Source of the DNA: Paraspadella gotoi
Taxonomy: Eukaryota; Animalia; Chaetognatha
Assembly: GCA_051294375.1 (NCBI GenBank)
Contig: CM119263.1
Location: forward strand, 24,285,657-24,349,656
DNA: 64,000 nt
Reading direction: 5' to 3'
The position numbers and the translations under genes are program-made. The notes under the pieces are model-generated. The model was not told the origin of the DNA, did not search any database, and was given only the letters and a program-made list of their open reading frames with translations. Shown here piece by piece: positions 44 to 64,000 of the stretch (position 1 is its first letter; each line of letters starts with the position of its first letter).

Positions 44-1861
44 TTACCTCAATATCGAATTAAGAGTAAAATAAGAGATCATGGATGAAAAGAATATTCG
101 CCAAGTAAGTCCTTGATTCCAAAAAGAAGCCCCTTCCTCCAAAGAGAAAAGAACACCGCCTACGGGCGCCCCAAAGGCAGCAGAGACGCCTGCCGCGGCT
201 CCGCCGGACACAAAATCTCTTTTTTCATGGTCGTTTCTAAAACACATTTTAAAACGAATTATTTTTAATTTTCGTACAATTAAAAATAAAATTAATTAAA
301 ACCTGAAATATTCAAAAATCTTGAAATCCTTATTGAGTAATCTTGAACGCCCTTGGGATATGCCAGCAGCTATAACCGCACCTAAATTACGTCCGATATT
401 TAACGTTATTGTCATTGTCTTATGTCTTTGAATATAATTATGTAATCAATTAATATCTTATTAACTTAAATATTAGTATTACCTGAATGAATCATGGGTC
501 CTTCTTTTCCAACAGCTAATCCTCCAGCTACTGAAAAAACTACACCTATAGCTTTGCAAATTAATGTTTTGATTCTAACAACCTGAAAGGAGTTAAAAAT
601 ATTTTTTGAAAATTAAAGTAAATTAAGTTTAATTTTAGTCGGGCGAGAATACCTTTGGAATCTTTACTCCGTTTAAATAGCATTTTATTTGAGGTATGCC
701 GCTTCCCGCGGCGACAGGTGATACATAGGCGACGAGGACAGCGGCTACTATAACAAGAACACAATTGATGCCAACCCAAGCGAAAAGAGGAACGGGAAAC
801 GGATCGGTCTCGGTAAACCTAGGGTAAAATCGTTTTCCAAAAAATAAGGCATTCTATTTCTAATTATCACGTTGTTACGCTACCTCTTGTAAGTGCTTTG
901 GATAACTTTATGCTTGAAAGTTGAAATTAGATCTATCATGATGTCGACAAAGACTGCGACCAAAGCAGTGAATATGCCGATGAAGAGCATGACAACCCAT
1001 CGAAGGACGGATCGTTTTCGAACAAAAGCTTGTCCTGGAGGGAAGCAAGAGTAAATCAGAAAATAAAATTTGACGAGTTTTCAATTCCATTGCCTTTTGT
1101 ACCTTTGTCGACTTCATCGGCGATATAAATCTTGTTGTGAAAATCTTCGTAATCGAGACTTTCAAATTCATTTGAGAGGGCGTGATCGAGTGCATCGTGT
1201 CCATCGCGGTTTCCTTTATATCGCTCCCATAAATTACGAATCCAACAATACTGATTAATGGGTTCAACCTACAAACAAAAAGACTCTTTAAAACGTAAAT
1301 AAAATTGGTAAACCAGAATTGACTATATTGGGGTACTTATCCCCAAAATACAATTTACGACTATTATGGCAACAGCCGGGTTGCCTGTGATGCCCATTGG
1401 GATGGGGCATCTCACTGTTGGTTTTGGAGGCTTCCGACCCTCAGTGACGCATCCAGTCACTGGCGCGGTTACCCTAGGACGGTCTCGCTTTGCCAACGCA
1501 GAGGGAAGTCGTTAGGACTGTGGATGGAACACAACGCCTGGGATGGTGTGTTCCCCCTCTGAGTCAATGGTATTGGCTGAACGATCGTGGTGAGAATATA
1601 CCACCACACTATTTTAGAAATGAAACAAAAACCTTCCTCCAACCAAAAATTATTTTGATCAGATCAATTTGTCTCAAGCCATCTAAGATTGCTTCATTAC
1701 CATAAATAATCAACAGGGCAGAAACTCACCCTCACGTCATCTTGGTTTTGAAGCAGAGAATCCTGAGTGTCCGATCTTATGGCACCGTAATTAGCGCGAT
1801 GATGGGGCATATTTGGGCTATCATTCACGCTGGATCGACGCAATATAGAACGACCCTCCAT
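44..1861 (-). CDS. CLCN7: H+/Cl- exchange transporter CLC-7-like, 5' part; multi-exon, runs into an N gap and the window edge
   Basis: Exon peptides [48 protein letters not shown] and GKEGPMIHS are CLC signatures of the CLC-6/7 branch. ATG at 1861 ([11 protein letters not shown]...) with a GTGAGT donor near 1729. Confidence 0.85.
1365..1608 (-). mobile_element. Solo LTR of the twister-bearing non-autonomous LTR element, in a CLCN7 intron
   Basis: Closely similar to the LTRs at 63016-63271 and 63509-63762. Flanked by 4-bp TSD CTAT (1361-1364 and 1609-1612). Confidence 0.85.
1417..1497 (-). ncRNA. Type-P5 twister ribozyme candidate (in solo LTR)
   Basis: Minus strand: GTTGGC AAA GCGA GA CCG TCCTAGGG TAA CCGC GC CAGTGAC-TGGATGC-GTCACTG AGGG T CGG AA GC CTCC AAAA CCAAC. 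It has UAA, GA, T1 (CGG/CCG), T2 (GC/GC), P3 and P4. Confidence 0.75.
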
Positions 1862-8100: not shown

Positions 8101-11100
8101 TCGTCTCGGGGGATTTATACCTGATTTAGTAAAGACAAAAACTTTAGAAATATAACAGTTTGGTTTGAATCAATTCAATTCATGGTCGAGGTTGTTGTCG
8201 TGGTAATTGTCCCAGATTCAGATGCATAGGCATAGGTAAAACAAACCCGCAGTAACGTCCAATAATTGGAGAATCTTCCGTGTATCCGTCTCGAACTTCA
8301 AGATAGTCGTAAACGCAACCGTCATGTTTTTCGATCTGCAAATTTTTTTCAACTTGAACGAAAAAAAGTCAACATATAAAAAAAGGAAATACAAACCTCA
8401 AAAGATTCAAATGACAAAGCGACGGCGAACCCATCTGGCACAGAAATCCTCCATACGCAGCCTTTATTCGGTCTATACTCATCCGGGAAGTTGGGACTGC
8501 TCAGTTTTCCGCCGTCCTCTCCTATTTAAACCAAGAAAATTACACATCATCCAAATTGTTTGAACTTCAACGGAAAGAGTCTACCTTTAGACAGGATATC
8601 CCCGCCACAAACGGCTTCGTATGTTGCGCGGAAACCGGCACCTCGATTTCCGTACGACGATCTATATTCCACCCAGAGTCTCTCCCCAGAAGATTTGAGA
8701 AGGGGCGGCAACCGGCCGCTGCCGCAAAATCGACCGAGAAGCGGCGCCCTTTGATTGATGAAATTCATTAATATCCGAGTAAGGAAGAATAATCCAGATT
8801 TCGGCTCACCTATACCAATGACCGTCCCTCACTTCAAGGTAATTAGTGTAGCAATTTCGCGTCAATTCTATGTTCATGTTTGTAATATTGAGAATAAGCT
8901 TTTCGCCGTGCGTGGCAGTGATGCGCCATTGACAAAATCTTTCATTTCCGGTATCTGGCTTAGGATAACCGGGGGAAACAACTGCTCCAGAAGGATCCTA
9001 TGATTAAACAATTATCGTTAAAGCTCAACTTAACATAAATTAACAATTTTATCACTTGTCACCTGCATAGTTTTGCCACAAGGCGGACAGCGATACAGCT
9101 TTTTAGCCTGGCGCACGTCACCTTGGCTCAACCACACCCTTTGGCCTATTTCCGGTCTTTTTTGGCCATCTGGAACTCTAAAATATGAGAGATTATTGAA
9201 AAAGAACAATTCATATAATGACGGGATCGCGGTTCCTGACCTTGGTAGAATCGTGTCGAGGTAAGTACCACGAGAAAACGTATTTCTCGCGTAATGCATT
9301 ATGCTACCGTAATCATACGGCTCCCCCAAGGAATACACTTCACTACTTCCCAACACATTAAAATTGTATTCCTGTGAACAAAAAAATATTTTTGAAAAAT
9401 CTTAAAAATATAGTGATCTCGCCAGTCGTTACTATTAAAGAAAATTAATTTAAAAAATCCGGAAAAAAAACGAATGATTGATGCGATAACAAATTATTAA
9501 TGTAATAGTAATTGATTGATGTAAATAATAATTATTAATGTAATAACTATTAATTATATAATTAATATATAATTAATATAATTAAAAGAGAGAACATATA
9601 ATTAAAACGTAATTCGTAATAGTTTTTATAGAAAATTATTTTGTAAATTAAACAAACAAATGCGTGTAGCAATATGAAACATGGTTCTAAAGGATCTTGA
9701 TGATGAGAAGCCATATCTAATTTTTTAACTTCCTATGATATCACACTTTTATAAAAATTAATTTAGGAACAACAGTTTTTGTTTGGGACGAACAACGATT
9801 TTATTTAACAGGCTAGTCAAACATGTTTCAGCTCTCAGATTAAAGCCTTCATCATCAGTGTTTGAAAATCAAACAAATTTTTACCTATCCCTCACTACTT
9901 ATTCTCCTTTTCACATTTCATTTTTAATTAACCAGTTGTAAGTTATTATCATTATCAATTTAATGTTAAGTTTACCTAAATTATTTATTCACCATATATC
10001 TTTGTTGTACATTAACAAATATAATTATTTTCTCTATCTCTCTCCCCTTCAACTTTTCACCTTCAAATTTAATCTATTTTCTTTTTCCCTGTCATTACCT
10101 TCACCTGTCCTTATATCTGACCAGTGACCACTGTCCTTTTGATTCTTTGTTGGAAGCTCTCTTTCCCCCCAAGATAAATGTCAAAGAGAAAATTTGTTTG
10201 AATTTCAAACACTGATGAAGGCTTTAATTTGAGAGCCTAAACATGTCTGACTAAACCTGTTAAATAAAAAAATATATAATTGTTTTGTAAATAAAACAAA
10301 CAAATGCATGTAGTAATATAAAACATGAGAATCTAAAAAATCTTGCTGATTAAAAGCGATATCTAAATTTTTAGCTTTTTATGGTTACACACTTTTACAA
10401 GTTCCAATTATAAAAAAGCGTGACGACGACGACAACGATGGTCACAAAGAAGCATCACTTAAACTAAATCAATATGGTGGACTAAAATCCACCAACCGTT
10501 CATCAGCGGCCATTGGTGCCGGAAGCAAGTCATTCGCCTCCCAACCCAAAGGTCCGGGGTTCTAGCCCGGTGGTCGTCTGGCAGTTAAGAGGGACGGGGC
10601 GCTTAACCCGCCTGTAACACGGTGTTACAGCCTGATCCGAAGCTCAGGGACTGCTTATATTGAACGGTTCTGTCACTAACTCATAACAATAATTACTGTC
10701 TCTTCATCAAGAATTAAAAATTGACGAACCTGGTTTGGAATAATGTTTTTCCGAATAATAATGACGTGTCGATCTCTGCAAAAAAAAATCGACTATTGTT
10801 ATCAAGATAATCCTCTCCGCTCCCGAACCAACCTGTCTGGACGAGTGTGTTCGTGCCAAAACCCGATGACGTGACCAAGTTCGTGGACGACTATTCCGAA
10901 CTTGTCGCAATTGTTGCCGATGGAGATGGCTTGGGGTCCATTGCCCCTCTTTCCCACAAAAGAGCAGCAACCGCAAGGACGGACGGTAAAGATGATGTAG
11001 TCCTTCTCAGTCGTACGTTCCACGAAGGAAATGCAAGTGTAGTTTTCCCAATGTCTCATGGCCTGAAACAAAAATTATTAAAATTTTAAACTTTAAACTA

Positions 11101-11906: not shown

Positions 11907-12125
11907 TTTAATTTTTATTCATTCTTAGGAGAAGAGCAAAGTCACCAATCGTTGCATGATTTAATTAGGTTTGAAATTAAAAAACAACCAACGAAGCAGT
12001 AAAAACCTGACGGAATGATAAGTTTAACATAAAAATAATTTTTATTTCAACGTCTCGATTTTGCAAGAATTAGCAAATAACACATTTTAAAATAAGAATA
12101 TTCTCTGTAACTTATATTCCAAAAA

Positions 12126-15951: not shown

Positions 15952-18400
15952 TTACCGGAGCCACTCCGACGCTTTTGCCAACCAGATAACCACAGAGTCG
16001 TACGCGATTTGTAACGTTTCTACCGAGACTGCCCACCATTTGGCTATGGACTCATTCTCCTCAAGCGTTGATTTGACGTTCGTCGAGTAGGTGATGACCA
16101 CGCTCCAGACTTCAGTCAAGTGATCTATCACCGCCGTCATAAACAGTCGCGCATAATGTGTTCCCGTGTTCCAGGTACCCGACAGAGACTTCTCCGCTGA
16201 CTCCCTCCAACCAGGGGCTTGTCCGTCCAAAAACGCCATGCCCGACTCCCAAGCTCCAGCAACTTGTCGAAAGAAAACCAAAATCAGTTGCCCAGCAAAA
16301 AGGAGCGTAGCGTAGACGTATTCTTGAAACAATAGCGCGTAAGGGGCGATCAGGTCCACGCTTCGAGAGTAAACGAATGGAAGGTCGACGCTGACCCATT
16401 CGCGGATGACGCGCTGCAAGTGGGAGGCATTGGCGAGAACTTGATCAAGTTGGGAAGAAAATCCAGCATCGCGAAGGAAGCGAAATGTCATCGACTCTTC
16501 CGCATCGCCCTTGGCAACGATCACGATATCCAATGCAAAGAAGCTGAGCATTAGAAAAAGGAATCGCATCAGCCACTTTTTCCCGCGGCCAACAGCGGAA
16601 CTTTCCTCAATGGCGGAAACCGTTCGTTCGTGGAGAGGTCGGCAGTTTTCTTCGCAAAGGCGAAGCCCAACCGGGTCTTGCTTAGAGCCAGCACCTCTCA
16701 ATTCTTCATTAGTAACTTCAAAAGATTTGACAGTCTCTTTCAAGCGCGCCTTGTCGATTTTCTCGGTCGCCTTCGACCCCTGGCACTCGACGAGGTGCTT
16801 AAGAAGAGCTCCGCTCTGGGGCAAGTGTTTGGTGTAAAGTTCCCTCCACACGGAGAACGATTTGGGATCTTGTACCAAGCAGGTTGTCAATGAGGAAAGA
16901 TATGCTCCTTTAAGAGGGCCGTTCGTATCGGCGCGGCTTAAGTAGGACGGAAAATAAGTATGGAGCGAAGCTGACGGATCTGCCCCATAGGCCATTGACT
17001 TGAGTTTGGGTAAAATAGATTTGCTTAATTTTCTCATTTCCACCGAAGTGATGCAAGTTGGGTTCGACTGATTGAAGAAATCCAGAAGTGTGAAGTATCC
17101 CGTCAATCCCAGAGACTTGGTTCCCATATGAAGATGCTTCGAATGAATGTTGAGGATCAGATCGAAATGCGCCAGTATGAAAGGTGCCAAATGACGCGTT
17201 GAGATCGAGGGAAACATAATCTCGAAAAAGACACGTATTCCCGTCGCCAAATCTTTGTGGCCAGACTGGCCTATAACCCACAAAACTGCCAGACATCGCA
17301 AAGGTCGGCCTTGATTTTCGCACAAAATTTCTGAAAACTTTGCTAAATCCCCCAGAACGTTGGTCGGCGACATGTAGGCCAATAGCTGAGCGGTTATCTG
17401 ATAGCCGTAAATGGACAAGCCCTTGCTAAGATCCGTCACCATGGACTGGACACAGTGGTGGAAAAAAATTTCTAAAACGTTGTTGGTAGTGCTCTGCAAA
17501 GTCTTGACGACGAGCTGCTTGATGCCTGGTGGAAGCTCGGACGACGGAAAGTCGGCCCTCTCGTTTGGATGCGTCGGGTCCTCGAGAGGAACCTCCTCAA
17601 AATGAACGTTGAGAAAACTTGCCATATCTTTAAGCCAAAGCAAGGTCGAATTGGGAAAAGCCCGTTTGGATTGGCTCAAAGCCTTCTCCAAACTCTCGGG
17701 CGTCAGACTCTTCATCGCGGCGGCCAAAGTCGGAGGTTTAGTCGGTTTCCCGGATTTCTCGCTTTTCTTCTTTCCTCCGCCACCATCTGGCCGAGGGCTC
17801 GCTTTCGAAGAGACGCTGAAATCCAAACGAAAAGAATTCATTACCACCTCGAAAATATAAACTTACTCGTGTGGCGAATCCTAAATTCGGCTCGCGTATA
17901 GCTTGGTGAAACTCAGCTCGTCCTATTGGCTTGGACATCTAAGTACTCATTCATCAACCGTGAGTTCCGGGTTCGATTCCCTCACGGTCACGCTGGTTAA
18001 GTGTGATGGTGTCGGCATAAACACGCCAGTGACACTGCAGGTCCAAAGACCTGAGCGCCTGCTATCGGGAGATTCTCAATCTCCGTGCATCACACCTGTC
18101 TCTCTAGTTACTAGTTACTTTTAAGATTCGTTTCAAAGCTTTGTATAACACATTAACACATTATGGTGAAACTTACGCGTCATCGCCACTTCCTTGATTT
18201 TTTGCCCTTTTGTCCTTGACGTTAGAAAAGGCCTCGAACATAGTGGGCGTCTCTTTGACGGGTTGGAGGTGAACCAAGTCTTCAATCTTGGTCATGGTCT
18301 CCAGTGCCGGAATAGCGCGCTTTCTGTCAGCCTTAGGCAAACTACCACTTTTTTTCGCTCGTGAACTGACAACAGTCTCCCATCGACCCACGTTTGCCAT
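15952..18400 (-). CDS. TMEM214: Transmembrane protein 214 (2 exons; intron about 17816-18176)
   Basis: N-terminus MANVGRWETV; motifs LLWLKDMASFLN, VLWVIGQSG, LHTYFPSYLSRA and WRELYTKHLPQS. Confidence 0.85.
17870..18123 (+). mobile_element. SINE-like element with tRNA-like T-arm and twister ribozyme, in the TMEM214 intron
   Basis: B-box GGGTTCGATTCCC inside stem ACCGTGAG/CTCACGGT, then the twister fold, hairpin GGAGATT-CTC-AATCTCC and a (TAGTTAC)2 tail. Confidence 0.55.
17991..18057 (+). ncRNA. Type-P5 twister ribozyme candidate (T2 variant)
   Basis: CGCT GGTTAA GTGT GA TGG TGTCGGCA TAA ACAC GC CAGT-GAC-ACTG CAGG T CCA AA GA CCTG AGCG. Perfect P2 ACAC/GTGT, T1 CCA/TGG, P4 CAGG/CCTG. L4 reads AAGA instead of AAGC. 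Confidence 0.7.
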
Positions 18401-21849: not shown

Positions 21850-22295
21850 TTTTTTTACGTTTTTTAAATTGAATGATTATCACATTTCGTACTTCCTACA
21901 AAAAAATAGTTGTGAAACTAATAAATAAAAAATGGCAAAAGTTGTTGCAACTATTTCAACAAACAGATTAAAATTTCACATTTTAAGGATATAGCAATAC
22001 CTTTATTATTGCCAATTATTAAAAAAACATTAAAAAAAAGCATGTGACAATACAAAATAAGTATACTTTAATATATTTTTAGAGAATGTTATCACGTCGT
22101 TTTAGAAAATGAAAATGGTTTTGAGTACACAGAATTACTTACGTCATCAAAAAATATGAATGTAATTCAATAATATGACCAATGAATGAATACACGAACG
22201 TTGTTGGCAGTTTGATGGCTCCAAAAGGGCAATTGTTCTCTAAGCAGAAGAGTTTCGAAAATGTTTAGCAGTAATCGATATCGATTTCAGCATTT

Positions 22296-25200
22296 TTATT
22301 TATAAATCGTCTCCGGATTTCCAGATTTTAATGCAGAATATCTTGCCGCCGTAAAAAGGTAATCGCTGAGTCTATTAAGAAAAATAAGCGGATCTTTTTC
22401 CATTTCACCGTTGGAAACCAACGAAACGACACGACGCTCGGCTCGCCTATTAATTTAAGAAAATAACTGACATATTTAGCCAAATAAATTATTAAATTAA
22501 AAAACTTACCTACAAATAGTTCGGGCAACGTGTAACGAAGCTGCAATTTTACCACCAGAAGGAAGAATAAAATTTGTCAGCGGCGGTAATTCCAAAGTCA
22601 TCGCGTCGATCCACTCCTCTAATCTTATAACTGTTGTTTTTTCAAAATCGCCAACATGCTAAAGACAACAACTTTATTAAGTTCGTTTTCAATGAAAGTC
22701 GTACGGTACTGCTAATTTAAATATTAAAACGTAACGGAAAATTTGTTGTCATAAAGCATACAGGCGACCCAAAATTTATTACTTTTTCTTATTCAGAGTT
22801 CTGGAATTCAAAATTGTTTGTTCAATACTTGTCCTGTACTAAATCGATTTGTACTACGACTTTTTTATTTAGTAGCATATCCAAACATTGAAGGATCTAA
22901 ATGTTTATTGATACATAGGCAATGAAAAAAAATTTATAAATATAGTTATTGCAAACAATTGCTTACTTTTTTGTGGGCATCTTTGCGAGATGACTTAGGT
23001 GTTGCGACATGACTAGCAACGTCCTGGAGCGTGCATTGAATAAACTGCAGTTGATGGGAAAGATCGATTGCGTCGTTTGACGTGAAAATAGAGTTTTCGA
23101 GGCAATGTTCTCTCCCTGTCAAGCAAGAGAATAAAAGAGAAAAAAAGATCAGGGGACAAAGTCAAGCAACTACGTCCACATGCCTAATTTTACGAGTTCA
23201 ATCCTAATTAGCCTGGCAAGCTTCATATGGGACGGGTTGGAATATCTTTACAAAACCTTGGGAATATTACCTTGGTACCAAAATAAGAGATTTGAGATAG
23301 AACGATTTTTTGTCTACAAAGCCAAAAGGTTCGTAATAAAAATCGGGTTACTCCAATATGCAAATGAGATTAACGTTTCACAGTAATATTTTAATTTAAT
23401 AAAAACTTATTAATCTTATATAAAAAATTAAATAAATATAATAAAATCGAATTTAAAAGCTAGTATATATAGTTTGATCAGCAGATAGGATAAAAAAAAT
23501 AATATTAAGCACTAAAAAGCACATGAAAATACTGTTGCAATGAAGGTTTTTGTAACTTAATCTTGAAAGATAGTAAGACAGTGAACAATGACAAAAAGCT
23601 ATTGAGACAGAGAGAGATACAGTTCAATCAGTTTTTTTGTTTTTCTCATAACCATTTTGGTACTGATTACTTGAATCATATCAAAATACTTTAATAGCAA
23701 GGATTCGTTAGAAGCTTTCCTTTCCAGCGCTCTCTTCAATTAACTTCATGATTGTTTTTGTGATTCTCTCCGTCTTTGTCATAGTTATTATACATCACTA
23801 GGAAAAGAGTGAGCATTATCATTTTATTTGAGCTAATAATATATGACAGTAAAAAAATTAATATTATTTAAGAATTTTAATTTTGGGGCCACTTGGAGGT
23901 AATTAAAAAAGCGAGGGTAAATCTTTCATTTGTCATGGGTTAGGTTCAGTTTTATCAAATTCTAACTTTTATTACTTTACACTATTATAAAGCCTATATC
24001 TAAAAATAATACTTTTGGGTCAATCTGTGTCTTTCTCTCTTTCTCTCTCTCCCTTTCTCTCTCTTAGTCTCTCTCTATATTTCGTATTTGTTTTCAGAAA
24101 AAACTTTTATTCTTGTTAAATCTTTTACCATGATAATAACTTAAAAAATAATTCAAAATATTTAGCAAAAATATACTTTTTGTACTTGCAAATACAATTA
24201 TGTCAAAATTATATTGTGGGAATAAATAAACGAGTTTGTGAAAGAGTCTTGATTGAATGCTTACAAGGAACCGCTCTGTCATTATCTTGTACACTACGGC
24301 GCAAAGAAAACCACTTTTTCATATCGAAAAAAACCGTATTGGATGGCTGAATTTTACAAAGATATAGATACATAAAATAAAGCTTATTAAATGATAAAGC
24401 GATTGGTACAAGTCCCAATAAAATCGAGCAAAGTGTTCGAAAGTTAGAGGACGACAAAGTCGATTGGTACAAAAATCGTCAAAAAGAGTCAATGACTTTT
24501 CCCTATTAAAAGTGTTTATAATATGAAATTGGTACAACCAATATAAAAATTATCCATTCATTTAATAAATAAGCTATCTTTCTCCTGACTTTGGATAGGC
24601 TTTGTGGTTTAAGGCCTCCATCACAGCATCACTCTTACAAGATAATGACATGTCTCGTTTATTCACTCCCAGAGTACCTGGTTTCCCTATCAATGAAGTG
24701 GTATAATGTTTCAAAGAATGTTTCAATTGTATGAAATGACCACTCCCTTAAGTATTAGATCGGGGAATACTATGAAATTGGTACAACCAATATAAAAATT
24801 ATCCATTCATTTAATAAATAAGCTATCTTGTCCCTGACTTTGGACAGGCTTTGGTGGTTTAAGGCCTCCATCACACTTACAAGATAATAACATAGCAGGT
24901 TTCTGCAAGCTTTCAATCAAGACTCTCTCACAGTCTTATTTATTCACTCCCAGTGAACCTGGCTTTCCTATCAATGAAGTGGTATAATATTTCAAAGAAT
25001 GTTTAAATTGTATGAAAAGGACCACTATATTATACTCTACTCAGCATCAAAATACAAGGAGCTGAATTTTATGAAATTGGTACAACCAATATAAAAATTA
25101 TCCATTCATTTAATAAAAAAGCTATCTTGCCCTCACTTTGGATAGGCTTTGGTGGTTTAAGGCCTCCATCACTCTTACAAGATAATGACATAGCAGGTCC

Positions 25201-26542
25201 CTGTAACCTTTCATTCAAGACTCTCTCACAGTCTCGTTTATTCATTCCAAAGTACCTGGCTTCCCTATTAATAAGAATTTTATTTCATATCAATAATGAT
25301 AATAATAAAATGGTAAAATGTTTCTAAGAATGTTTCAATGGTATTGTAATAATATAATTTTCTTGCACCAATTGATATATTTTTTTAAAATATTTTTTTA
25401 AAATTAAAAAAGAAATAGTTGTTTTACCAATTTGATAATGAAAATGAAAAAAAAATCCAATTTGTAAAATTTTGATAGCCATGTTAATATTATTAGATTA
25501 ACTTTTTTAAATATTTTTTATTATACAGAACTATCAAAACAAATTAAAACATTTTATTAATTGTTTTTTAAAAAAATAGTTATTATTAAAATGTTTATGC
25601 TCTCTTTTGCCTTATATTCAACCTTACGATGACGCATTAATCTCATTTGCATATTCGAGTCACTCGATTTTTATTACTAACCTTTTGAGCTTACTTGACC
25701 TACCGGTTCTGATCATATTTTGAAAGTTTTTTGAAAATCTGAATCTAGATTCAGGCACTATCCTAATTCAATTTTTTTTAAATAAAAACGCAGAGAGAGA
25801 GAGAGAGAGAAAGAGAGAGCGAGAAAGAGAAGCCAAATCGTTTTCAGACGAATCAGCAGAAGCAGCAGGAAAAAACTTTTTCATTATAAAATAAACTGGT
25901 AAGCAGAAGCAGCCTCTGAAGAAAAAAAAAGAGAGGAAAAAAAAAAGAGAGAGAGAGAGAGAGGAAGAGAGAGGGAGAGAGAGAGAGAGAGGAAGAGAGA
26001 GAGAGAGGAAGAGAGGAAGAGAGAGAGAGAGAAAGAAGCCAAATCGTTTTCGGACGAATCAGCAGCGACAGCAGCAGAGGCAGCCAGAAAAAAATAAAGT
26101 AATCAAAAGGCAGCAGCAGAAGCAGCAAGAGAAAAGAGAGAAAAAGAAAAAGCCCCTGCAGAGCCAGCTGCAGACTCGTTTTTTCTCTCGATAAATCAGC
26201 CTGGGAAAAAGAGAGAGAGAGAGAGAGCTACATATAATTAAAAGAGAAAAGAGAGAGAGAAGGAGACATACCTAATCCGATCCAGGAAGAAAGTTCATCA
26301 ACACTTCCCAAAGCTTCAAAAACATTATCGTCCTTTTTTCTTCGTTCCCCAGTGAAGAGACTAGAGTTTCCACCGTCGCCAGTTTTGGTGTAAACTTTCA
26401 TAGATCGAACGTGACTTCGATCGACCGAATAGAATCCAGAATTCAAGTAAATTCCAATAGAAGCTAATGTAGATCGAGGAGACGAGGCAACAGGAAAGCG
26501 TTTAAGAAGTATTCGTGAAAATAAATGCTTAAGAAGAGACAT
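22296..26542 (-). CDS. MMAB: ATP:cob(I)alamin adenosyltransferase (about 3-kb repeat-filled first intron)
   Basis: Exon 1 [42 protein letters not shown]. Later exons [40 protein letters not shown] and [14 protein letters not shown]. Confidence 0.9.
24522..25330. repeat. Three tandem units of about 250-300 bp in the MMAB intron
   Basis: Unit start TATGAAATTGGTACAACCAATATAAAAATTATCC at 24522, 24771 and 25070. An inverted fragment lies at about 24210-24295 and a short copy at about 48109. Confidence 0.8.
25790..26265. repeat. GA/GCA-rich simple and low-complexity repeat
   Basis: (GA)n tracts and a duplicated AGAAGCCAAATCGTTTTC.GACGAATCAGCAG. Confidence 0.8.
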
Positions 26543-30941: not shown

Positions 30942-31092
30942 TATTACTTCTTTATCCTAATAAGGTTACGAATTTCTCTTCAGAATCATTTCTTATTTCC
31001 GTCCCTACTTTCGGTTGAGAAAAAAGGCAAGAAAAGCAAAACAAAGATTTTTGAGTATTATCGAGTTCATAAAGACACGAAATAAGTAAAAT

Positions 31093-32898: not shown

Positions 32899-33506
32899 CC
32901 TCGACCCTAATTTTTTATTCTCGAATTTCGGCTGTCAATGTCATAAGGAAGGATGCGATAGTAATTTACATCGGAAATTTTTTTCGCAGTTTATTCGAAC
33001 TGACACGAACGAAAAAGACCGAGTATCTTGTATGATCGAGACTTGTGAGTTTCCCTAATTTACTTTCATCACATTTTCAAGTTTTTGTTTTAAAAGTAAA
33101 AAAATAAGTGTCGAATAATTTCGAAGAGAAGGATGGACATTAAACAAAGTTCTGGAAAGAAAATCATTCATATTGTGACAAACTCATTTACGTTTAAGGA
33201 CCTAAACGATATATTTAATTTAATTAGCAGATAGTTTTTTTAAGATATTTTTCAAACTGGCAAAACTGAGAATTTACAAGCTGAAAAAAAAAAAGGACTA
33301 GTTTATCACATGTATAAATAAATGAATCAGGCAATTTGACATTGTAATCTGTAACACATTTTTTTTTATTTAGCGAAGAACGTTAAGTAAAACCGTGAAA
33401 AATCTTAACGCCGTATGAGCCTTCGAAAAGAGAAGTCTTTGAAAAATCTTCGCTTTCGAGGATAAAAATCACGAATTTGATTACTTTTACACTAAGTCGA
33501 AATGGT

Positions 33507-34731: not shown

Positions 34732-37700
34732 TCATTTCAAGGCGGATTTTTGCTTAATTAGCCCGGCGACAGAATCGATAAATTCACTCGTAGTTGCAGT
34801 TCCGAAAATATCCTTAGTCCGAATTCCTTTAGCTAATGTTTCCATGAAGCTGCTTTCGATAACATCTGCGTGGTAGCCCAAACCTAAAAATAAGTTATAT
34901 ATTTCGGTATTTTTCCTTTTCATAAAAAAATTTAAAAAAATGATCAAAAATTAAATGTACCCAAGTAGTTCAACAAAGACGTGCTTGCGTTTATCATAAA
35001 GACAGGGTTTGCTTCATTTTTTCCAACCAACGTCTTTCCTGTGTTTCTGGTCGCCTGCTCAAAAAGAGCATGTTTATCTCCTGTGAGAAAACATTTTAAT
35101 TTTGAATCATTGTTATATTCCTTTCTTTTCGTTGCGTTTTGGTATTAGGTAAAAAAAAAAAATCATTAAAATCGTTGTAAACACAAAAATCTGTTTTTTC
35201 CCCTAATTTTGAATCACAAACATAAAAATTTTAAAAGTATAGTGATCTCGCCAGACGTTACTATCAAGAAAATTAATAAAAAATAATAAAAAAAAATGAA
35301 TGATTGATGCGATAACAAATTATTAATGTAATAGTAATTTTTTTTTTCTGAAAAGAGAACAGAGCAAACAAATAATTGCGGGAATGGTTGCAAAAATATC
35401 TTATGACAACAATAAACGAGAACAAAAAAGGGGAAGATAAAAAGGAAAAAGAAGAAGAGATCGGGAGACAAAGTCTAGCAACTCCGTCCACATGAGACGG
35501 CAACTCAATCACGGGACTTCGGGAAGCGTTCTCGCGCTGAAGGCAGACAAAATCTCTCAAAAAAGTGCTTAGACGCTTAGTAACTGAATGATATAATAAT
35601 AATTGATTGATGTAATAATAATTGATTGATGCGATGATAACCAAATATTGATACGATGATAACCAAATATTAATACGATAATAACCAAATATTAATACGA
35701 TGATAACCAAATGATGGATGTGATAACCAAATGATGGATACGATGATAACCAAATAATTTATACAATGATAATTTAATAATAAATGTAATGATAATCATT
35801 CATTGATGCGATGATAATTATTTATTGACGCAATGATAGTTAATCATTGATGCGATGAGTGAGTGAGAAAGAAAAGCTGGACAAACGCTGCACAACCGCT
35901 ACAGAGCTTAACTCGTTTTTAAATGAATCAAAAGAAAGAGCAACAAAATAAAAAAAAAGTATGACATATAATTAAAAGAAAGAGAAAGAGTGGACAACCG
36001 CTGCAGAGCTGAACTCGTTTAAATATATAAAAATTGTTTTGTAAATAAAACAAACAAATGAATGTAGGAATATGAAACATAAGAATTTAAAAGACTTCAA
36101 TGATGAGAAGCCATATCTAAATTTTCAGCTTCTTATGGTTATACAATTAACGACAACAATGACGACTATAGTCAAAAGAAGCAGACGAATTAACATCTCG
36201 CCGAAGTCGAGCATTCGCCCGTCTGGCGAGATAAAAACAATATGAATTATAAAAGAAACTAACTCACCAATATTTATTCCAGCTGCTAGACCTGATCCGC
36301 CGGTAAGACCACAAACAATGCTACTGACGATATTACCGTACAAATTAGGGCACACCATCAGGTCAAACTGATGAGGTTTCGATACTAGTTGCATGCTTGT
36401 ATTATCCACAATCATTCCTAAATTTCGAAAGATTATTCAAACTAATATCTGAAATCATTGAAGTCGCTACGAACCTTCAAACTCTATGCTAGGATAATTC
36501 TTTGAAACTTCTCGGCAGCATTCTAAGAAAAGGCCATCTCCCATTTTCATGATGTTTGCTTTGTGAACAGCCGTTACCTAGTAGTGATTAGATTCATAGA
36601 CTTTTTTCTGTCATTTTTCTTTACTATTCCAAAGCTTACATATAGCAGTTTTGTTTCGTTCGTAGTATCTTATTGATTTAGCCGGCTAAATTTTACTTTC
36701 GCCGACCGCGGTTTTGGGGTCTTTTGAAAGATTATTTAAAAATAAATTAAAAAAAAAAATATGGTTAAATTAAAAATAACCCAAAAATATTAATTAATTA
36801 CCTTAAACCGATTTAACCCTAACCACCCCTAAACTTATACCACCATTAACCCTAACCCCTCCCTAACCCCGGTCGGTTAAAGTAAAAGTAACCCATTTAG
36901 CCAATAATTAAAAGATTATTTTAACAAAAACTTCAACCTTTTTCCGATTATTTAATTTGGCAAATTCAAAAGCGAATTCCGCGATCCGCATCGATTTTTT
37001 CCTCGTGATGACTTTGAGAGATTCGATGACCCCCGGGACGGTTTGATGTTCGAGACCCGCGTATTCCCCTTCAGTGTTCTCGCGAATGATTACGATATCC
37101 AACGGTTCCTAACCGTCGAAATTAGGCTAAAATTGCGTGACAAGGCCTATATGTATAATCGAAAGCCGGATGTCCCGAACCTTGTGCCTCGCTTTGAGGC
37201 CCGGCAACGACTTGCAATGAACAATGTCCGCGAAAAGATCTAACTCCGTTCTTAGAGAAACATTCTTTGACCTTTTTCCTTGAGGGAGATTAGTGTTGAA
37301 AAACATGTTGCCTTTGAGCCCGACGCCATTACGACGAATCGCCTTCACTGCCTGAGATGGAAGCATTGCTCGTGAAAATCCAGATTCGTCGAATTCACCA
37401 ATTTTAAAATACTCGAAAACTTACGACGTTGTAATCGTGCTCAGATTCAATGTTGACGGTTTCGAAATCGACGGGAACTCCGGCCAACTGAAAAAGGTAC
37501 TTGACATGCTCGGCCATTTCCGGACCGACTCCGGTACCGGGAATCAGCGTTACCGTGTACCTGCCGCCGTAGGTCACCGCGGCCTTGGTCTTTAAAGGGG
37601 GTAATTTGTGAAGACCAGTGGAAAGGTTTGCGACGGAATCTGTTCCACATGTCCAGCCGACGCTGCCTGCCGCCAAGCCATATTTGTTTTTCGAGGTGGA

Positions 37701-41125: not shown

Positions 41126-45441
<4,316 letters not shown>

Positions 45442-46145: not shown

Positions 46146-49100
46146 TCACCACTTTTTTAATTCTTCATTGGCTTTGATCCTAGCTTCCATATCCTGCATA
46201 TTTTCCCGCATCTCCTCCAGGGCGAGATGCAGCTTTCGCCTTCGCTTCGATTGTTGCTCCCCTCCGTCGCGGTCACACTCGACTCCTTTGATGTCGTACA
46301 ACCAGACGCGTCCGAAGTCATCCCCGGCTGCCAAAATCTGATAATCCAAAATGAAAGACAAAAGCTACAAATGGCTACGGGCAGACTATACAAAGGACAT
46401 GGAGCCTTATAAGCAGGTTTCGACACATTAGCTCTTAAAATCTTCTCACCTGCTCTCTACCCCCTCCAAAGGTCGACCACGCGAGTCGGTTGAGGGCCAC
46501 AGCTGGGTCGGGCCTCACAGACGCGAACGGAAGCTGTAGGTCTGAACTAACGTCCCAGAGCGAGAGGACTCCGCCAGCGTCGACGGCGGCGAACATGGAG
46601 GCCACTCCGGGGGACCAGGCCACGTCGAGAACGTAGTCGGAGAAGTCTTCGAACGAATTGAGACACGTCAACTCGGGCGACGACGACGAGGGGGCATGCG
46701 ATGATCTCCAAAGTTTGACAGTTCTGTTGGATGAGTGGCTAATTTCATAATTATCTAACCCATTACTAATCATTACCGATCATGACTAAACAAAACAGAT
46801 TACCTGTCAAAAGACGAGGTGAGTATCAAATTGCCGTAATCGCGGGAGGGATGGCAAGAAATGCCCGTAACGGGTCCGTAATGACTGAAAAAGTTTTCGG
46901 GCGACGCTCCTTTACCCAGCGATCCAGATCCGTGCCGGTCGACAACGAATACCGTACCTTCTTCGGATCCAACAAAGAAAGATCTAGCCGAAAATAAAAA
47001 AAATAACTATAAAATATTATTGAATACCATGATGAACCACCAAAAGCGCGAATAACAATTAAGAAGAGGTGGTACCTGTGATTAAAGGTATCTTCTTTTT
47101 CATTGGTGAGTTGATGTTTGAAGAAAGACATACAGGTAGCAGCTAAAGGACGGTGAGGGGAATGGACCTGAAGAAGAAAATGATTTCTAATCAATAAAAA
47201 AAAAGGCGATTCTTAAAGGATTATGTTAAAACCTGCGTCAGCTCCATAGTCTCGACCGGTTGAGTCAACATATCCATCGCCCAACTACACATTTTCCCGT
47301 CAGTCGATATGGAAATTAACGAATGTGCGTGAGTAGATCCCATTACTCCCAAGCAATAAACCTGAAACAGAAATGATATTTATAAATAAGTGTTTTGAAA
47401 GAAGTAGCGGGTGGATTTGTCTTACCGGGTGAGTGTGTCCTCCGCTGGCTGAAAGCGGCGTGCGTTGCACTGGGGTTCTCCTGGGAACTCTGTTGTCCCA
47501 CAATACGATTTGACCGCTGTAAGTGCCGCCGATGACAAGGTTTTGATGAAAGGGAGAGAAGGAAGCCGACATAACTCCAGACTGACAGTGAAATATGAAT
47601 TCAGGTTCTGCGGAAAAAAGAAGACGCCCAAATCACAAAGTACTTAAAAATAATATAATGGCACTGTGGACGCAACTCTGAAACTTGTGGCGTCCACAGC
47701 ACATTATTACCAGCCGACGACTTCTCGCTGTTGGCAGACATGAATCTTGCGTTCCAAACTAGGGCGACGCCGTCGGGTTCTAGCGGCGAATCCTCGTGAC
47801 TTCCATATGTGGCCAGCAACAATTCTGTAGATTTGACGAATCAGATTAAAACGCACACTTAAGGGAACGCAGTGATAGAGGGGGGTCAGGAGGGGTCAAC
47901 ATTTTTTTAAATTAAATGACCTTGCGGACTTTATTTCTGTAATTTCTGTTTTTACAATAATATATTGAATTAATTATTATTGATTTATGATAACATGTTT
48001 ATCACTGGGTTCCCTTAAATCACGACAAGATAAATAAAAAAAAAAATTAAATGATCCATTGTTCATAATTATTATTCTCATTTTTTATCAATATACAATT
48101 TATACATTTATGAAATTGGTACAACCAATATAAAAATTATACATTCATATATTGTTATACTTATTTTTATTGCTTTTACCGTTGTGATGCTGGGACCACT
48201 GAAGCGAAGTAACCACCCGGTGCCGTGACCAACGATCGTGAAAAAATAGGTCAGCATTCTTGAGAATGGCTTCGGCGCCGTCATCGTCGTCCTCGAAGCC
48301 TTTCAACTCTTCGCTAGCGCCAACGTAATCAATGAAGATGTCACTTCTCTCCGTTTTTAAAGCTCGTTCCATGACTTTTGAGGAATTCTGCGATTCAAAT
48401 CGAAAGAATAAAAGCAACAAACATGATAGATTAGAAGATCGCATTGACTCACGTGCAAGAAGCTCACGAAATCATCCGACTTTTCGATGACCCGCTTTTC
48501 ATTTTCCGTCAGTTCTTTAAGCAACGTGCGACCGAACGACGACGATGACATGGACCCACTAGGCGTCTCCGAAGTGCCTGATAGAGGAGGGTATACCCAT
48601 TGAAGACTCTCGAACGCTTCCAAGCAACCTTTGTGTACGTATAAAATCTTCATTTGTATCTAATACTTAAAATAAATGCGTTATTAAAATATTGGGAGAC
48701 ATTAATTTTCATCAGTTTCAAGTTTTAAATACATTTTTGTAATCAACATACATATAAAAAATCTTAAAAGTATAGTGATATCGCCAGATTTTACTATCAA
48801 AGAAAATTAATGAAAAAATCTGAAAAAAATAATGAATGATTGATACAATAATAAATTATTAATGTAATAGTAATTGATTAATAAATGGTAATTGATTCGA
48901 TGATAACCGAATATTGATGCAATGATAACCAAAGAATTTATGCGATGATTGCCAAAATATTGATACAATGATTGCCAAAAGATTGATGTAATGATAGCTA
49001 AAGGAATGAGGCGATGATAATCATTCATTAACGCAATGATAATCATTCATTGATGCAATAATAATCCTTCATTGACACAATTAATCATTCATCATAAATA

Positions 49101-51140
49101 AAATAAATGCGTGTATGTGTGAGAGAAAAAAAAAATTAGAGAGAAGCTGGACAGCCGCTGTTTTTAATGAACTCGTTTTTAAACAAATCAGAAGAAGCTG
49201 CAATGGAAAAAGATATAATTAAAGAGAGAAATAAAGAGAAACTGGACAGCCGCTGTAGCAGATTAATTTGTGGATTAACTTAAATGAGATTGATTTCCTC
49301 AATCTCATTTACATATTATCGTATTCTGATTAAGCTTTGATAAATTTTTATTCTATTGCCCTAAAAGTTTAATATTAATATTTTACATTTGTAAATGATC
49401 ATGTTTGCTTATAGTTCAATTAATAACTAAATAATTAATGATTTAATTATCATAATTGCTAGTTTACAACTTTAATTATTCTTGTACAGTCGCTGCAGAG
49501 CTGAACTCATCTATATATATAAAAATTGTTTTGTAAATAAAACAAACAAATGAATATAAGAATATAAAACATAACAATTTAAAAGACCTCAATAATGAAA
49601 AGGCATATCTAAATTTTCAGCTTTCTATGGTTACACACTTGAACTATTTTCAATGTTAAAACAGCGTGACGACGACAACGACTACGGTCAAAAGCAGAAA
49701 CGAATTAAAATCTCACCCAAGTCGGGCCCGTCTGGCGAGATAAAAATAATATACAGCAAAATATGAAAGAATACAGTCATGTGCAAAAAAACGCGCCAAT
49801 TTATTATCAGCTTGAAAAATTTTTTTCAATATTTAAATTTTTTAATTTTTAAAAAAAATTTTAAAAAAATTAAAATTTATTAAAATATAAAAAGTTTAAT
49901 ATAAATTTTATTAAAATTGGGCTATCCGTTTTTTAAATAAATTTTTTTAAATAAAATACTTATAAATAATATTCAATTTTCCCCTTTCTTAAACCACTCG
50001 ACTAATTTTTATAAAATATATATATTGATTAAATTTAATTTTTAAAAATATTCTTATAAAGCATCAGGAATTAAAATTATTTTTTTGCACATGAGTGTAC
50101 GTAGCTAATTTCAAAAAATCATAGCACGCATTAACATTTTAATGGATAAAAATCGGAGAATTGATTTATAATGAGATTAGACGATTTACCGGCGTTAGCG
50201 GCTTCAACGAGAGAAGGGGATTCTGATCTGTCGCCCTTGGGCCTGACTCTCGAGGGAACCGGCATCTGCGCCTTTGGTCGTGTTTGAGGTCCGGCTCCGT
50301 CATAATCCTCCTCATCCTCTTCTCCCTCATCGTCGTCGGACTCTTTTGGATGAAACTCGTCCTCCCATTCGAAAGTATGGAACACAAATGGACCTGGATA
50401 AAATTTCAACCGTTGACCAATGATAGCTATGAAGCCACTAACAATGTCAGCTTGATAATGATACGTCTCATAGTCATACGTCAATAATATAGTTTTAAGT
50501 AAAACAAATTTGTTTTGTAATTGTAAAAACCTTCGTAAAGATGTAGAGGCTTGGCGTCTTTAGCTAGGCCCTGGGAGCCCGAGGGAGTTTGAGTCTGTTT
50601 AGTGTAACAGACAAAATCCTTTGGAAGAATGGACAGCTGCGAAACTTGCGATAAAGAAAGGTTTTTGGTAGGCGTTCGTGCCGTGAAGTATTGGCTGAAA
50701 ATAAAATACATTGTACACATCGGATCATGATTAAAATTAGATATGACTTACCTATTTGGACTAGACAGACATTTAGTCTGATTAACGTTTTGTTGTAGGC
50801 TAAGTTCCCCTGGAGTAGAAGTTCCCGAAGAACTCCGCGGCGTGTCTATGCCGCTCAACCCTCCAAGGCGTGCTTTAGAGATCTCTTGAAGAACTTCTTC
50901 GATGAATGTTTCATCGCATCGCGAAAGGGACCCTTTTCACGACGAGACGAAAATTAAAAAACGCCTCAGTTTCAAAAGGAGCGAGGACAAAGTGTACGTA
51001 CCGGTTTGGCCCGATTTGGCGGTCGATGAGGCATCGTGGGCGGGGTCCCGCTTGGAATGCAAGTTTCGTAATCTTTTCTCCTCGCGAATCGCCGCCAATC
51101 GCGCGCGTTTTTCTTCCAGTTCTAACTTTCGTTGATTCAT
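46146..51140 (-). CDS. DYNC1I: Cytoplasmic dynein 1 intermediate chain (WD40)
   Basis: [21 protein letters not shown]8-binding [31 protein letters not shown]...TPVQRTPLS and [10 protein letters not shown]. Confidence 0.9.
47863..48014. mobile_element. 152-bp MITE with TTAA TSD (Kolobok-like termini)
   Basis: TTAA-GGGAACGCAGTGATA ... TATCACTGGGTTCCC-TTAA. Confidence 0.65.
48757..49741. mobile_element. HINE/DINE-1-like repeat family A, near-complete copy
   Basis: Same ends as 35225-36232 (GTGATATCGCCAGA ... GCCCGTCTGGCGAGAT-AAAAA). Confidence 0.7.
49774..50097. mobile_element. Tc1/mariner-like MITE
   Basis: TA-CAGTCATGTGCAAAAAAA ... TTTTTTTGCACATGAGTG-TA. Confidence 0.7.
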
Positions 51141-62540: not shown

Positions 62541-63942
62541 ATGACTTCGGTATCAATCAACGCGCTGAGTGCGATGCTCAGTTCGACATCAGTGGCCGGC
62601 AACGAAGTCAGTTTCGAAGGCCAAGGACTCAAACTGAACAGTCCCGAAGATGCCAAAGTCGTTATCGATGCCATCGACAGATGCGAGAACTTAAATATTT
62701 TGAAGTTGGAAGGAAACACTTTGGGAGTGGAAGCCGCTGAGGCGATCGCCAAGGCCTTAGAACGACATCCCGAATTTGAGCGCGCGCTGTGGAAGGATAT
62801 GTTTACGGGAAGATTAAAGACAGAAATACCTCCCGCACTACAGCATCTGGGAGGCGCGATCGTTTCCGCCGGCGCTCATTTGGTCGAGCTCGACCTCAGT
62901 GACAATGCATTTGGTCCCATCGGAATCGACGCGGTGGCAGCATTGCTCGAAAGCGCCAGCGCGTATACTTTGCAGGAATTAAAGTTTAACAACCAAGGTT
63001 TGATGAATAATATATTATGGCAACAGCCGGGTTGCCTGTTGATGCCCATTGGGATGGGGCATTCTCACTGTTGGCTTTGGGGTTTCCGACCCTCAGTGAC
63101 GCCTCCAGTCACTGGCGCGGTTACCCTAGGACGGTCTCGCTTTGCCAACGCAGAGGGAAGTCGTTAGGACTGTGGATGGAACACTACGCCTGGGATGGTG
63201 TGTTCCCCCTCTGAGTCAATGGATTTGGCTGATGGATGGTGGACGTGAGGCGGTGTGAATATACCGCCACAGGATCCCCGGGCCAAGACATCACTCAGGT
63301 TCCTCAAGCCTGAGAGGTGTCTGACAAGACTGTTACCATAGTGGAGAGAGAGAGAGAGAGCGCGAGTTGTGGGGGCATAGGCGTTTGTCGTAGCGTACCC
63401 CAGGGGCATAGGCGTTTGTCGTAGCGTACCCAAAGTCGGCAGGGCATAGGCGTTTGTCGTAGCGTACCCTGAGAAGGTTGCGTGTTCGATAGTAGGGCTC
63501 CCACCACTTATGGCAACAGCCGGGTTGCCTGTGATGCCCATTGGGATGGGGCATCTCACTGTTGGCTTTGGGGGCTTCCGACCCTCAGTGACACCTCCAG
63601 TCACTGGCGCGGTTACCCTAGGACGGTCTCGCTTTGCCAACGCAGAGGGAAGTCGTTAGGACTGTGGATGGAACACTACGCCTGGGATGGTTGTTCCCCC
63701 TCTGAGCCAATGGATTTGGCTGATGGATGGTGGACGTGAGGCGGTGTGAATATACCGCCACAATATACTTATTAAAAGTTGAAAATAAAGCTATTTAAAA
63801 TTGTTTTTCGAAGGTATGGGAATAGGCGGCGGAAAGCGACTCGCCAAATGTCTCATAACGTCACATATTCGAGGCTCGTCCGCCGGGACGCCTTTGAAGT
63901 TGAAAGTCTTTATTGCCGGAAGAAACCGATTAGAAAATCCTG
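62541..63942 (+). CDS. RANGAP1: Ran GTPase-activating protein 1, 5' part; intron 62998-63813; continues beyond the window
   Basis: LEGNTLGVEAA, WKDMFTGRLKTEIP, LDLSDNAFGP, NNQG|MGIGGG and LKVFIAGRNRLEN. Confidence 0.92.
63070..63149 (-). ncRNA. Type-P5 twister ribozyme candidate, 3' LTR (L4 AAGC changed to AAAC)
   Basis: Same fold as the 5' LTR copy, but a G>A change breaks one T2 pair. Confidence 0.6.
63373..63469. repeat. Three exact 28-bp direct repeats in the internal region of the LTR element
   Basis: GGGCATAGGCGTTTGTCGTAGCGTACCC at 63373, 63404 and 63442. Confidence 0.9.
63561..63641 (-). ncRNA. Type-P5 twister ribozyme candidate, 5' LTR (consensus core)
   Basis: GTTGGC AAA GCGA GA CCG TCCTAGGG TAA CCGC GC CAGTGAC-TGGAGGT-GTCACTG AGGG T CGG AA GC CCCC AAA GCCAAC. 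Predicted U^A cleavage between 63615 and 63614. Confidence 0.8.
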
Positions 63943-64000
63943 GTATGATATCGACTTTAGAATTAGAAATACCGTATTTGTACTTCACATGAGCGAATAT

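Follow-up and report, generated by a model that had tools for sequence, protein, structure and literature searches.

Results

A non-coding LTR element within the RanGAP gene

The window (the whole 64-kb stretch of DNA analysed) contains a gene for a Ran GTPase-activating protein (RanGAP), one intron of which holds a 747-bp LTR element, here called family A, in antisense orientation to the gene (Table 1). The intron is bridged by a contig of run X9, from which the element has been spliced away with it, and we infer from this junction that the intron was ~65 nt long prior to the insertion. The RanGAP protein shows 50–69% identity to animal homologues and 81–82% to two further proteins, and in a tree it forms with these two relatives a branch of its own, beside the arthropods, without firm support.

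The anatomy of the element largely follows the original prediction, which had been made from the sequence of the window. The claimed pair of ~255-bp LTRs measures 254 and 256 bp, and the two align with 250 matches, three substitutions and four gaps over 257 columns; the claimed 4-bp target-site duplication is present as ATAT on both flanks, and the TGG motif expected 2 nt past the 5′ LTR starts at 63506. The termini are TG...TA, not TG...CA. The element had also been described as containing no ORF: the sense strand does carry one 125-codon ATG ORF, but it found no match in a Pfam search, and a 2-nt deletion present in 56–59% of the contig depth (three runs) shifts its frame; we therefore rejected it as a gene and regard the element as non-coding.

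Table 1. Positions, strands and basis of assignment of the features discussed in the text.
Feature	Position	Strand	Basis
Host intron of RanGAP, 816 nt, GT-AG	62995..63810	+	Junction 62994/63811 in a run X9 contig
Family A element, full length, 747 bp	63016..63762	-	LTR + 237-bp internal region + LTR; non-coding
Family A 5′ LTR, 254 bp, begins TG, ends CATA	63509..63762	-	Contig loose ends cluster at 63508/63509 and 63762-63767
Family A 3′ LTR, 256 bp	63016..63271	-	LTR-LTR sequence comparison
Target-site duplication ATAT, left flank	63012..63015	.	Sequence
Target-site duplication ATAT, right flank	63763..63766	.	Sequence
P5-permuted twister fold including P3, both pseudoknots (T1, T2) intact, cut predicted at 63615^63614	63561..63641	-	Descriptor, covariance model
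Twister fold of 3′ LTR, T2 guanine lost (63083), predicted inactive; would-be cut 63123^63122	63070..63149	-	LTR comparison, PMC5113685
Putative primer-binding site, 3′ part, complementary to 3′ end of tRNA-Trp	63495..63506	-	tRNA gene comparison
Putative primer-binding site, 18-nt second block complementary to tRNA-Trp variable loop and T arm	63472..63489	-	Comparison with tRNA of L003
Three 29-nt internal repeats	63372..63469	-	Each a hairpin within the predicted circle
Polypurine tract position, a mere 5-purine run, 3 nt ahead of 3′ LTR	63272..63282	-	Sequence
Weak A-box-like motif upstream of ribozyme with a degenerate B box; might be an RNA polymerase III promoter	63699..63709	-	Motif search
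Family A solo LTR, duplication ATAG, twister with T1 and T2 intact	1365..1608	-	Sequence, descriptor
Family A LTR lacking its 3′ end, no duplication	42340..42541	+	Sequence, descriptor
Family B, ~225-bp LTR-like unit, ends CA; P5-type twister at 17992-18062, T2 mismatched	17870..18094	+	Covariance model
Family C, ~213-bp LTR-like unit, ends CATA; intact P5-type twister at 10581-10654	10473..10685	+	Covariance model, descriptor
Family D, triple repeat of ~170-200-bp units that end CATA, TTAT either side	24522..25270	-	Second covariance model

Elsewhere in the window we noted a second dispersed repeat family of at least six pieces (6091–6587, 9395–9754, 10270–10452, 13389–13758, 35207–36243 and 48735–49752), a tandem duplication at 29445–32934 in which two adjacent long frames match sulfhydryl oxidase (QSOX-type) domains, and Pfam-negative long open frames of 205–640 amino acids at 11007–11918, 19954–21876, 28463–29080 and 41126–41983.

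Ends and copies of family A

Contigs from two DNA runs of the same organism aligned to family A in large numbers, 14,191 on 62700–64000 in run X1 and 8,273 on 63455–63770 in run X2, with 1,021 and 796, respectively, fitting only partially. Loose ends lie exactly at the LTR edge 63508/63509 in 113 + 100 contigs of X1 and 120 + 99 of X2, with other DNA beyond, and the contigs reveal hundreds of further insertions with identical ends. Constant ends flanked by short duplications are what an LTR integrase leaves behind. The Gypsy-type integration originally claimed is well supported by the 4-bp duplications at three insertions, the fixed ends and the tRNA-Trp primer site described below, and the element was therefore probably inserted by a Gypsy-type integrase.

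These observations bear directly on another origin for the repeats, namely that they are Penelope-type pseudo-LTRs or tandem units of a non-LTR retrozyme, generated via target-primed reverse transcription. The known animal retrozymes are indeed non-LTR tandem repeats (PMC7229834), and one of the families described below, family D, consists of three AT-rich repeats in which a primer site was looked for and none found. Such an origin is nevertheless highly improbable in view of the 4-bp duplications, the TG...TA ends, the constancy of those ends over hundreds of contigs, the solo LTR with a duplication of its own and the tRNA primer site 2 nt beyond the LTR, features that animal non-LTR retrozymes are stated to lack in the same paper.

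The depth of the internal region is around one-fifth of that of the LTR in X2, which, contig depth being a rough guide, suggests that many family A copies are solo LTRs. In X1 contig depth rises ~10,000-fold from the flanks to the element, but summed contig depth is not copy number, and we claim only the order, hundreds to thousands of copies. The solo LTR of the window (1365–1608) appears to be intronic, with its ribozyme sense to the host and splice-like motifs near 1727 and 1268 (minus strand), and with its intact pseudoknots it could cut the host pre-mRNA; the units at 63 kb and 18 kb are antisense to their host genes.

None of the listed runs containing the element is recorded as RNA. Run X9 gave 587 contigs on 62700–64000 in addition to the spliced RanGAP contig; these give neither strand, ends nor level, and intronic copies or DNA would look alike. 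Depth in X9 is higher downstream of the cut site, an observation unused as evidence. Record 1 of run X11, which apparently reads primer site, internal region, LTR and primer site, was rejected as evidence of a circle because collapsed LTRs cycle in any assembly graph. Run X10 holds one 199-nt RanGAP piece without differences, which may come from the same organism, and it was excluded as a second host.

The twister fold of the LTRs

Read from 63641 to 63561, the motif of the 5′ LTR consists of P5, AAA, P2, GA, T1 (CCG), a short P1 hairpin, U^AA with the predicted cut, P2, T2 (GC), P3, P4 and P5, and its P4 loop is U-CGG-AA-GC, that is, U, T1, AA and T2. This domain order agrees with Table 1 of PMC8501958 and with the consensus line of Rfam Twister-P5, and the same order is shown by published twisters (PMC5408937). 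A strict twister descriptor, designed with the element already known, matched three of the four family A LTRs in the window, compared with one match in 150 shuffled windows and none in 20,000 shuffled LTRs; a relaxed descriptor requiring Watson–Crick T1 and T2 found five motifs in the 64-kb window and none in 100 shuffles. Full matches were obtained for the 5′ LTR, the solo LTR, the 42340–42541 copy, family C and the middle copy of family D, and not for the 3′ LTR of family A or for family B, in both of which T2 is broken.

In the 3′ LTR, T2 reads AC (63083 and a gap), a minority state among the copies: the guanine equivalent to 63083 is retained in 16,203 of 19,840 of the contig depth of run X1. 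In the rice twister, non-pairing changes in the C14–G30 pair, equivalent to T2, abolish activity; 33 of 69 single mutants keep more than 0.8 of the activity, mispairing is frequently tolerated in P1, P2 and P4 but not in T1 or T2, and the G of the GA motif does not belong to the four positions that tolerate no change (PMC5113685). Judged by this tolerance rule and the loss of the T2 guanine, activity of the 5′ motif is plausible and the 3′ motif at 63149–63070 is probably dead, so that the copy as a whole, its 3′ ribozyme being broken, is probably half-dead. The claim of a P5-permuted twister in each LTR is therefore borne out for the layout in both, but T2 has its GC/GC pairing solely in the 5′ LTR. 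Similarly, the two predicted cut sites are 492 nt apart, as had been calculated, but release of the predicted 492-nt unit from this particular copy is unlikely because of the broken T2 pseudoknot in the 3′ ribozyme, and the claim applies instead to the family.

Several features of the motif depart from an ideal twister. P1 has two pairs; P2 has a C–A mismatch adjoining the active site, where no variant at or above 2% occurs in the family; and the twister is not the minimum-energy fold of the 81-nt motif, an alternative structure reaching –32.2 kcal/mol compared with –22.1 kcal/mol for the twister helices when the pseudoknots are left out. The Rfam scan of the window gave zero matches reaching the gathering score, and no hammerhead was found in scans of either the window or the element. 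The family A element has a partial twister-P1 match (15.8 bits, E 0.38–3.8), families B and C have no significant Rfam match, and family D matches Twister-P5 over positions 1–58 of 58 (25.6 bits, E 0.0044, cutoff 37.6). The covariance-model check proposed earlier therefore leaves the element itself below the cutoff, but does find Twister-P5 in family D, though also below the cutoff. The Rfam P5 consensus is without P3, which families A–C have; their scores lie below the curated cutoff and their activity is a prediction, and the absence of P3 from the consensus may explain why they were missed.

Variation among family A copies

In run X2, variants reaching 3% of the depth occupy five of 13 loop positions, none of 68 stem and core positions, 15 of 121 positions of the upstream LTR and none of 52 downstream (Fisher p = 5e-5 for loops versus core and 1e-3 for upstream versus core), in a table of every difference above 2% over one LTR; the contigs are depth-weighted, the counts reflect subfamilies and not independent events, and the loop and core classes were set after viewing the variants. 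At a threshold of 2%, two core positions vary, both of them CpG, one keeping a G–U pair in T1 and the other being the outer pair of P5. The 52 nt downstream of the ribozyme (63509–63560) are as invariant as the core, so that a scarcity of variants is not peculiar to the ribozyme. This stretch, the last of the LTR, contains two hairpins, has no variant at or above 2% in three runs and is possibly an integrase, packaging or ligation signal.

Related folds in three further families

A covariance model built on four family A motifs matched 17992–18062 in family B (35.9 bits, E 5e-8) and 10581–10654 in family C (19 bits, E 0.004), and a second model matched family D at 24826–24884 (E 0.018) and 25125–25182 (E 1.4). 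The first seven bases of the family B unit are those of family A, with no matching duplication, and the flanks of family C match at three of four bases, with no exact duplication. The repeats of family D are separated by spacers of ~97 and ~77 bp; two of its three twister folds are those matched by the model, the third is damaged, and T2 reads AC/GU. A partial inverted copy of family D adjoins the triple repeat at 24219–24291. Family B (17822–18176) seems to lie in the first intron of TMEM214 on the minus strand, an intron deduced from reading frames and homolog length; the best-scoring named relative of this TMEM214 is 33% identical.

Outside the twister motif, comparison of the four families gave no BLAST match better than E 0.02, but the catalytic and pseudoknot positions (UAA, GA, T1, T2 and U-NNN-AA) are kept in all four of these families otherwise almost without common sequence, and the cut site lies mid-unit in each, 113–149 nt from the start. 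When families A, B and C are compared, both partners differ in 12 of 26 pairs and 96% of cells pair, which none of 500 shuffles reached; this count covers six motifs of these three families, to the exclusion of family D, with three of nine model matches (E >1) dropped and the alignment fitted to nested helices. T1, which the covariance model does not score, covaries at two of its three pairs, and T2 is broken in two of the six motifs. The loop-only variation among copies, taken with the covariation across four families, argues that the twister fold is under selection, and the description of 63016–63762 as a non-coding, non-autonomous LTR element carrying such a fold is well supported.

The same evidence bears on whether the fold is a relic, or a packaging or dimerisation signal that no longer cuts, in what would then be a plain TRIM. 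The fixed P2 mismatch, the minimal P1 and the competing fold are what such a reading would lead one to expect, as are the lack of an Rfam hit for family A, the equal invariance of the downstream 52 nt and the two copies with a broken T2. We nevertheless regard it as improbable, given that the bases retained over four families sharing almost no other sequence are the catalytic and pseudoknot ones, and that the helices carrying the defects, P1 and P2, are among those in which the rice enzyme often tolerates mismatches.

Primer site, possible helper and possible promoter

The putative primer site of family A is, on the basis of complementarity, in two parts and directed to tRNA-Trp: the 18-nt block is joined by 12 bases on the internal side that match the 3′ end of the tRNA with two extra bases, which are absent from 56–59% of the contig depth. 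The 18-nt block is specific to tRNA-Trp, none of the other 13 tRNAs of contig L003 pairing over more than 7 nt; the comparison tRNA is that of another organism and not the host, and part of the primer pattern was modelled on tRNA-Trp. When genome contigs were scanned with the sequence that follows the 5′ LTR, two loci matched, L003 and L002. In L003, positions 1011–1082 are a tRNA-Trp(CCA) gene within a cluster of 14 tRNA genes (1–2581), some with eukaryote-type anticodons (AGG, AAG and AAT), filed under a bacterial genome; contamination or a large virus is the likely source of this contig. L002, a eukaryote-looking contig also in a bacterial bin, has at 1495–1540 on the minus strand ~40 nt that would pair with the whole 3′ half of tRNA-Trp, CCA included. 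This is probably a long primer site from an unrelated LTR element, and no twister lies near it. Twister model R2 gave no match in either of the two genomes behind L002 and L003, an uninformative sample. The two primer-site patterns had no locus in viral contigs; the twister pattern had none there and one in metagenome contigs (L001), which was rejected as a chance match, lying beside a bacterial integrase-like frame and failing the structural descriptor.

A tRNA-Trp primer combined with a 4-bp duplication is typical of the CsRn1 lineage of Gypsy elements (PMC3630058), but other Gypsy and Helenus families also prime with tRNA-Trp (PMC10886601), and CsRn1 as the helper lineage is therefore a lead only. 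In addition, loose contig ends at 63476 and 63517 reveal a different element that has just a ~42-nt box, comprising LTR end and primer site, in common with family A, and this element is a candidate helper. Among the 43 long frames of the window, none belongs to a reverse transcriptase or integrase family.

As for transcription, a pair of A and B boxes as loose as that of family A arises in 16% of shuffles (15–16% for families A and B), no such pair was found in family C, and the boxes tested for are absent from family D; the polymerase III boxes are thus no better than chance. Just upstream of the twister, families B (17959–17988) and C (10550–10571) have tRNA T-arm-like hairpins with a B-box-like motif, possible internal polymerase III promoters like those of Helenus. 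The sense strand of family A contains neither a T4 run nor AATAAA, and ARAGORN and Rfam found no tRNA.

A linear life cycle has to be weighed at this point, in which an active twister would form just one terminus of a linear transcript and replication would follow the usual TRIM course, in the style of Cassandra or Helenus, with no circle. Transcription would start in the 5′ LTR, the 5′ ribozyme would be skipped or misfolded, and the 3′ ribozyme would replace a terminator or poly(A) site, leaving terminal repeats. The conservation evidence fits this scheme equally well, the strong alternative fold could block one copy of the ribozyme, and the box-like motifs of families A, B and C and the lack of a T4 run or AATAAA are in keeping with it. 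Animal Helenus TRIMs also have 4-bp duplications, Gypsy-like primer sites including those for tRNA-Trp and many solo LTRs (PMC10886601), and the RNA of Perere-3 is trimmed at one end by a twister (PMC8501958). However, the LTRs are copies of one another, so that a transcript begun upstream of P5 carries two whole ribozymes, and the promoter boxes occur at chance level in families A and B and are missing, as a pair in C and as tested in D. On balance we consider a linear cycle rather unlikely, though it is an alternative to be taken seriously.

Discussion

We consider it fairly probable that family A is a non-coding animal LTR retrozyme built on the twister ribozyme and mobilised by a tRNA-Trp-primed Gypsy element. 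Its anatomy is strongly supported, whereas its chemistry is predicted; of the original proposal of an animal twister analogue of the plant retrozymes, an LTR element with a selected fold has been found, while cleavage, circle and helper keep the standing of inferences. In the proposed mechanism, the twisters of both LTRs, which likely self-cleave, would cut the transcript to give a 492-nt unit without a repeat, 106 nt of its length being LTR sequence at the leading end and ~148 nt LTR sequence at the trailing end. The usual first strand transfer would find no landing site on such an RNA, and it is for this reason that a circle is proposed, its closure solving the problem; the identical argument has been made for the plant retrozymes (PMC4918200). 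The circle, predicted to be moderately structured (58% paired, z –2.1), would then be copied back into DNA by the helper, the predicted Gypsy element.

The resemblance to the plant LTR retrozymes (PMC4918200 and PMC7761336) is extensive. These too are non-coding, with a self-cleaving ribozyme motif in each of two LTRs, a 4-bp duplication, a primer site right behind the 5′ LTR, solo LTRs and a GC-rich unit (57% in family A), and just as the plant elements share a box of LTR end and primer site with Gypsy elements (PMC4918200), so family A shares its ~42-nt box with another element. They differ in having a type III hammerhead and a tRNA-Met primer, where family A has a P5-permuted twister, a putative tRNA-Trp primer and an animal host, and in having LTRs of 300–400 bp and units of 600–1000 nt, compared with ~255 bp and a predicted 492 nt. 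In addition, the polypurine tract of family A is weak, and its circle is a predicted one, whereas the plant elements accumulate as circular RNA. With the hammerhead absent, family A is not an LTR retrozyme in the strict plant sense, and our claim is that it works like one.

Animal non-LTR retrozymes likewise are non-coding and have a ribozyme repeated a few hundred bases apart, but they consist of tandem type I hammerheads and are described as being without LTR, primer site, polypurine tract or 4-bp duplication (PMC7229834), whereas family A has LTRs, a primer site and a duplication. By anatomy, the nearest animal class is Helenus/TRIMp3, animal TRIMs of 311–1263 bp, a size range that includes family A, with a 4-bp duplication, a Gypsy-type primer site and many solo LTRs (PMC10886601). 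Their LTRs contain a tRNA-derived segment with boxes A and B; family A has possible motifs resembling these boxes, and no tRNA was found by ARAGORN or Rfam. No ribozyme is reported for Helenus, the word appearing once in that paper, in a reference title, and a search of its supplement for six twister loop variants gave three hits, all in internal regions and none in a twister context.

With respect to the ribozyme itself, the motif has the Twister type P5 arrangement (Rfam RF02684; PMC5408937), P2-GA-T1-P1-UAA-P2-T2-P4(U-NNN-AA-T2), with closing P5. The twisters of Perere-3 and other RTE elements resemble it in serving an animal retroelement (PMC8501958), but in that case a coding non-LTR element carries a single ribozyme at its 5′ end, whereas family A is non-coding with a ribozyme in each LTR. 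The freely available literature searched contains hammerhead retrozymes of the plant LTR and animal non-LTR kinds and twisters in RTE/Perere-3 and in viroid-like circles; within that scope no twister in an LTR element was found, in agreement with the earlier impression that none had been described.

Taking the families together, we incline slightly towards the broader view of an old radiation of twister LTR retrozymes, with at least four families in 64 kb and probably thousands of copies of the largest, each making a viroid-sized circular RNA and riding on a tRNA-Trp-primed Gypsy element. Retrozymes have so far fallen into two groups, LTR elements of plants, which use type III hammerheads, and non-LTR elements of animals, which use type I (PMC7761336, PMC7229834 and PMC9695139), and a twister in animal LTRs breaks both of these pairings of host and ribozyme. 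The LTR pair at 63016–63762 provides a ready pair of predicted live and dead ribozymes, and the many copies make the proposed circle route testable in genome data. Tandem twisters are already an engineered route to circular RNAs in mammalian cells (PMC7229834), and twister-bearing circular RNAs have been found in transcriptome surveys (bioRxiv 2022.07.19.500677); if the proposal is true, it would give tandem twisters a natural job and the surveyed RNAs a genomic source. Family A would then be, within the literature searched, the first animal LTR retrozyme and the first non-hammerhead retrozyme, and cut-and-circularise retrotransposition would have arisen again with another catalyst.
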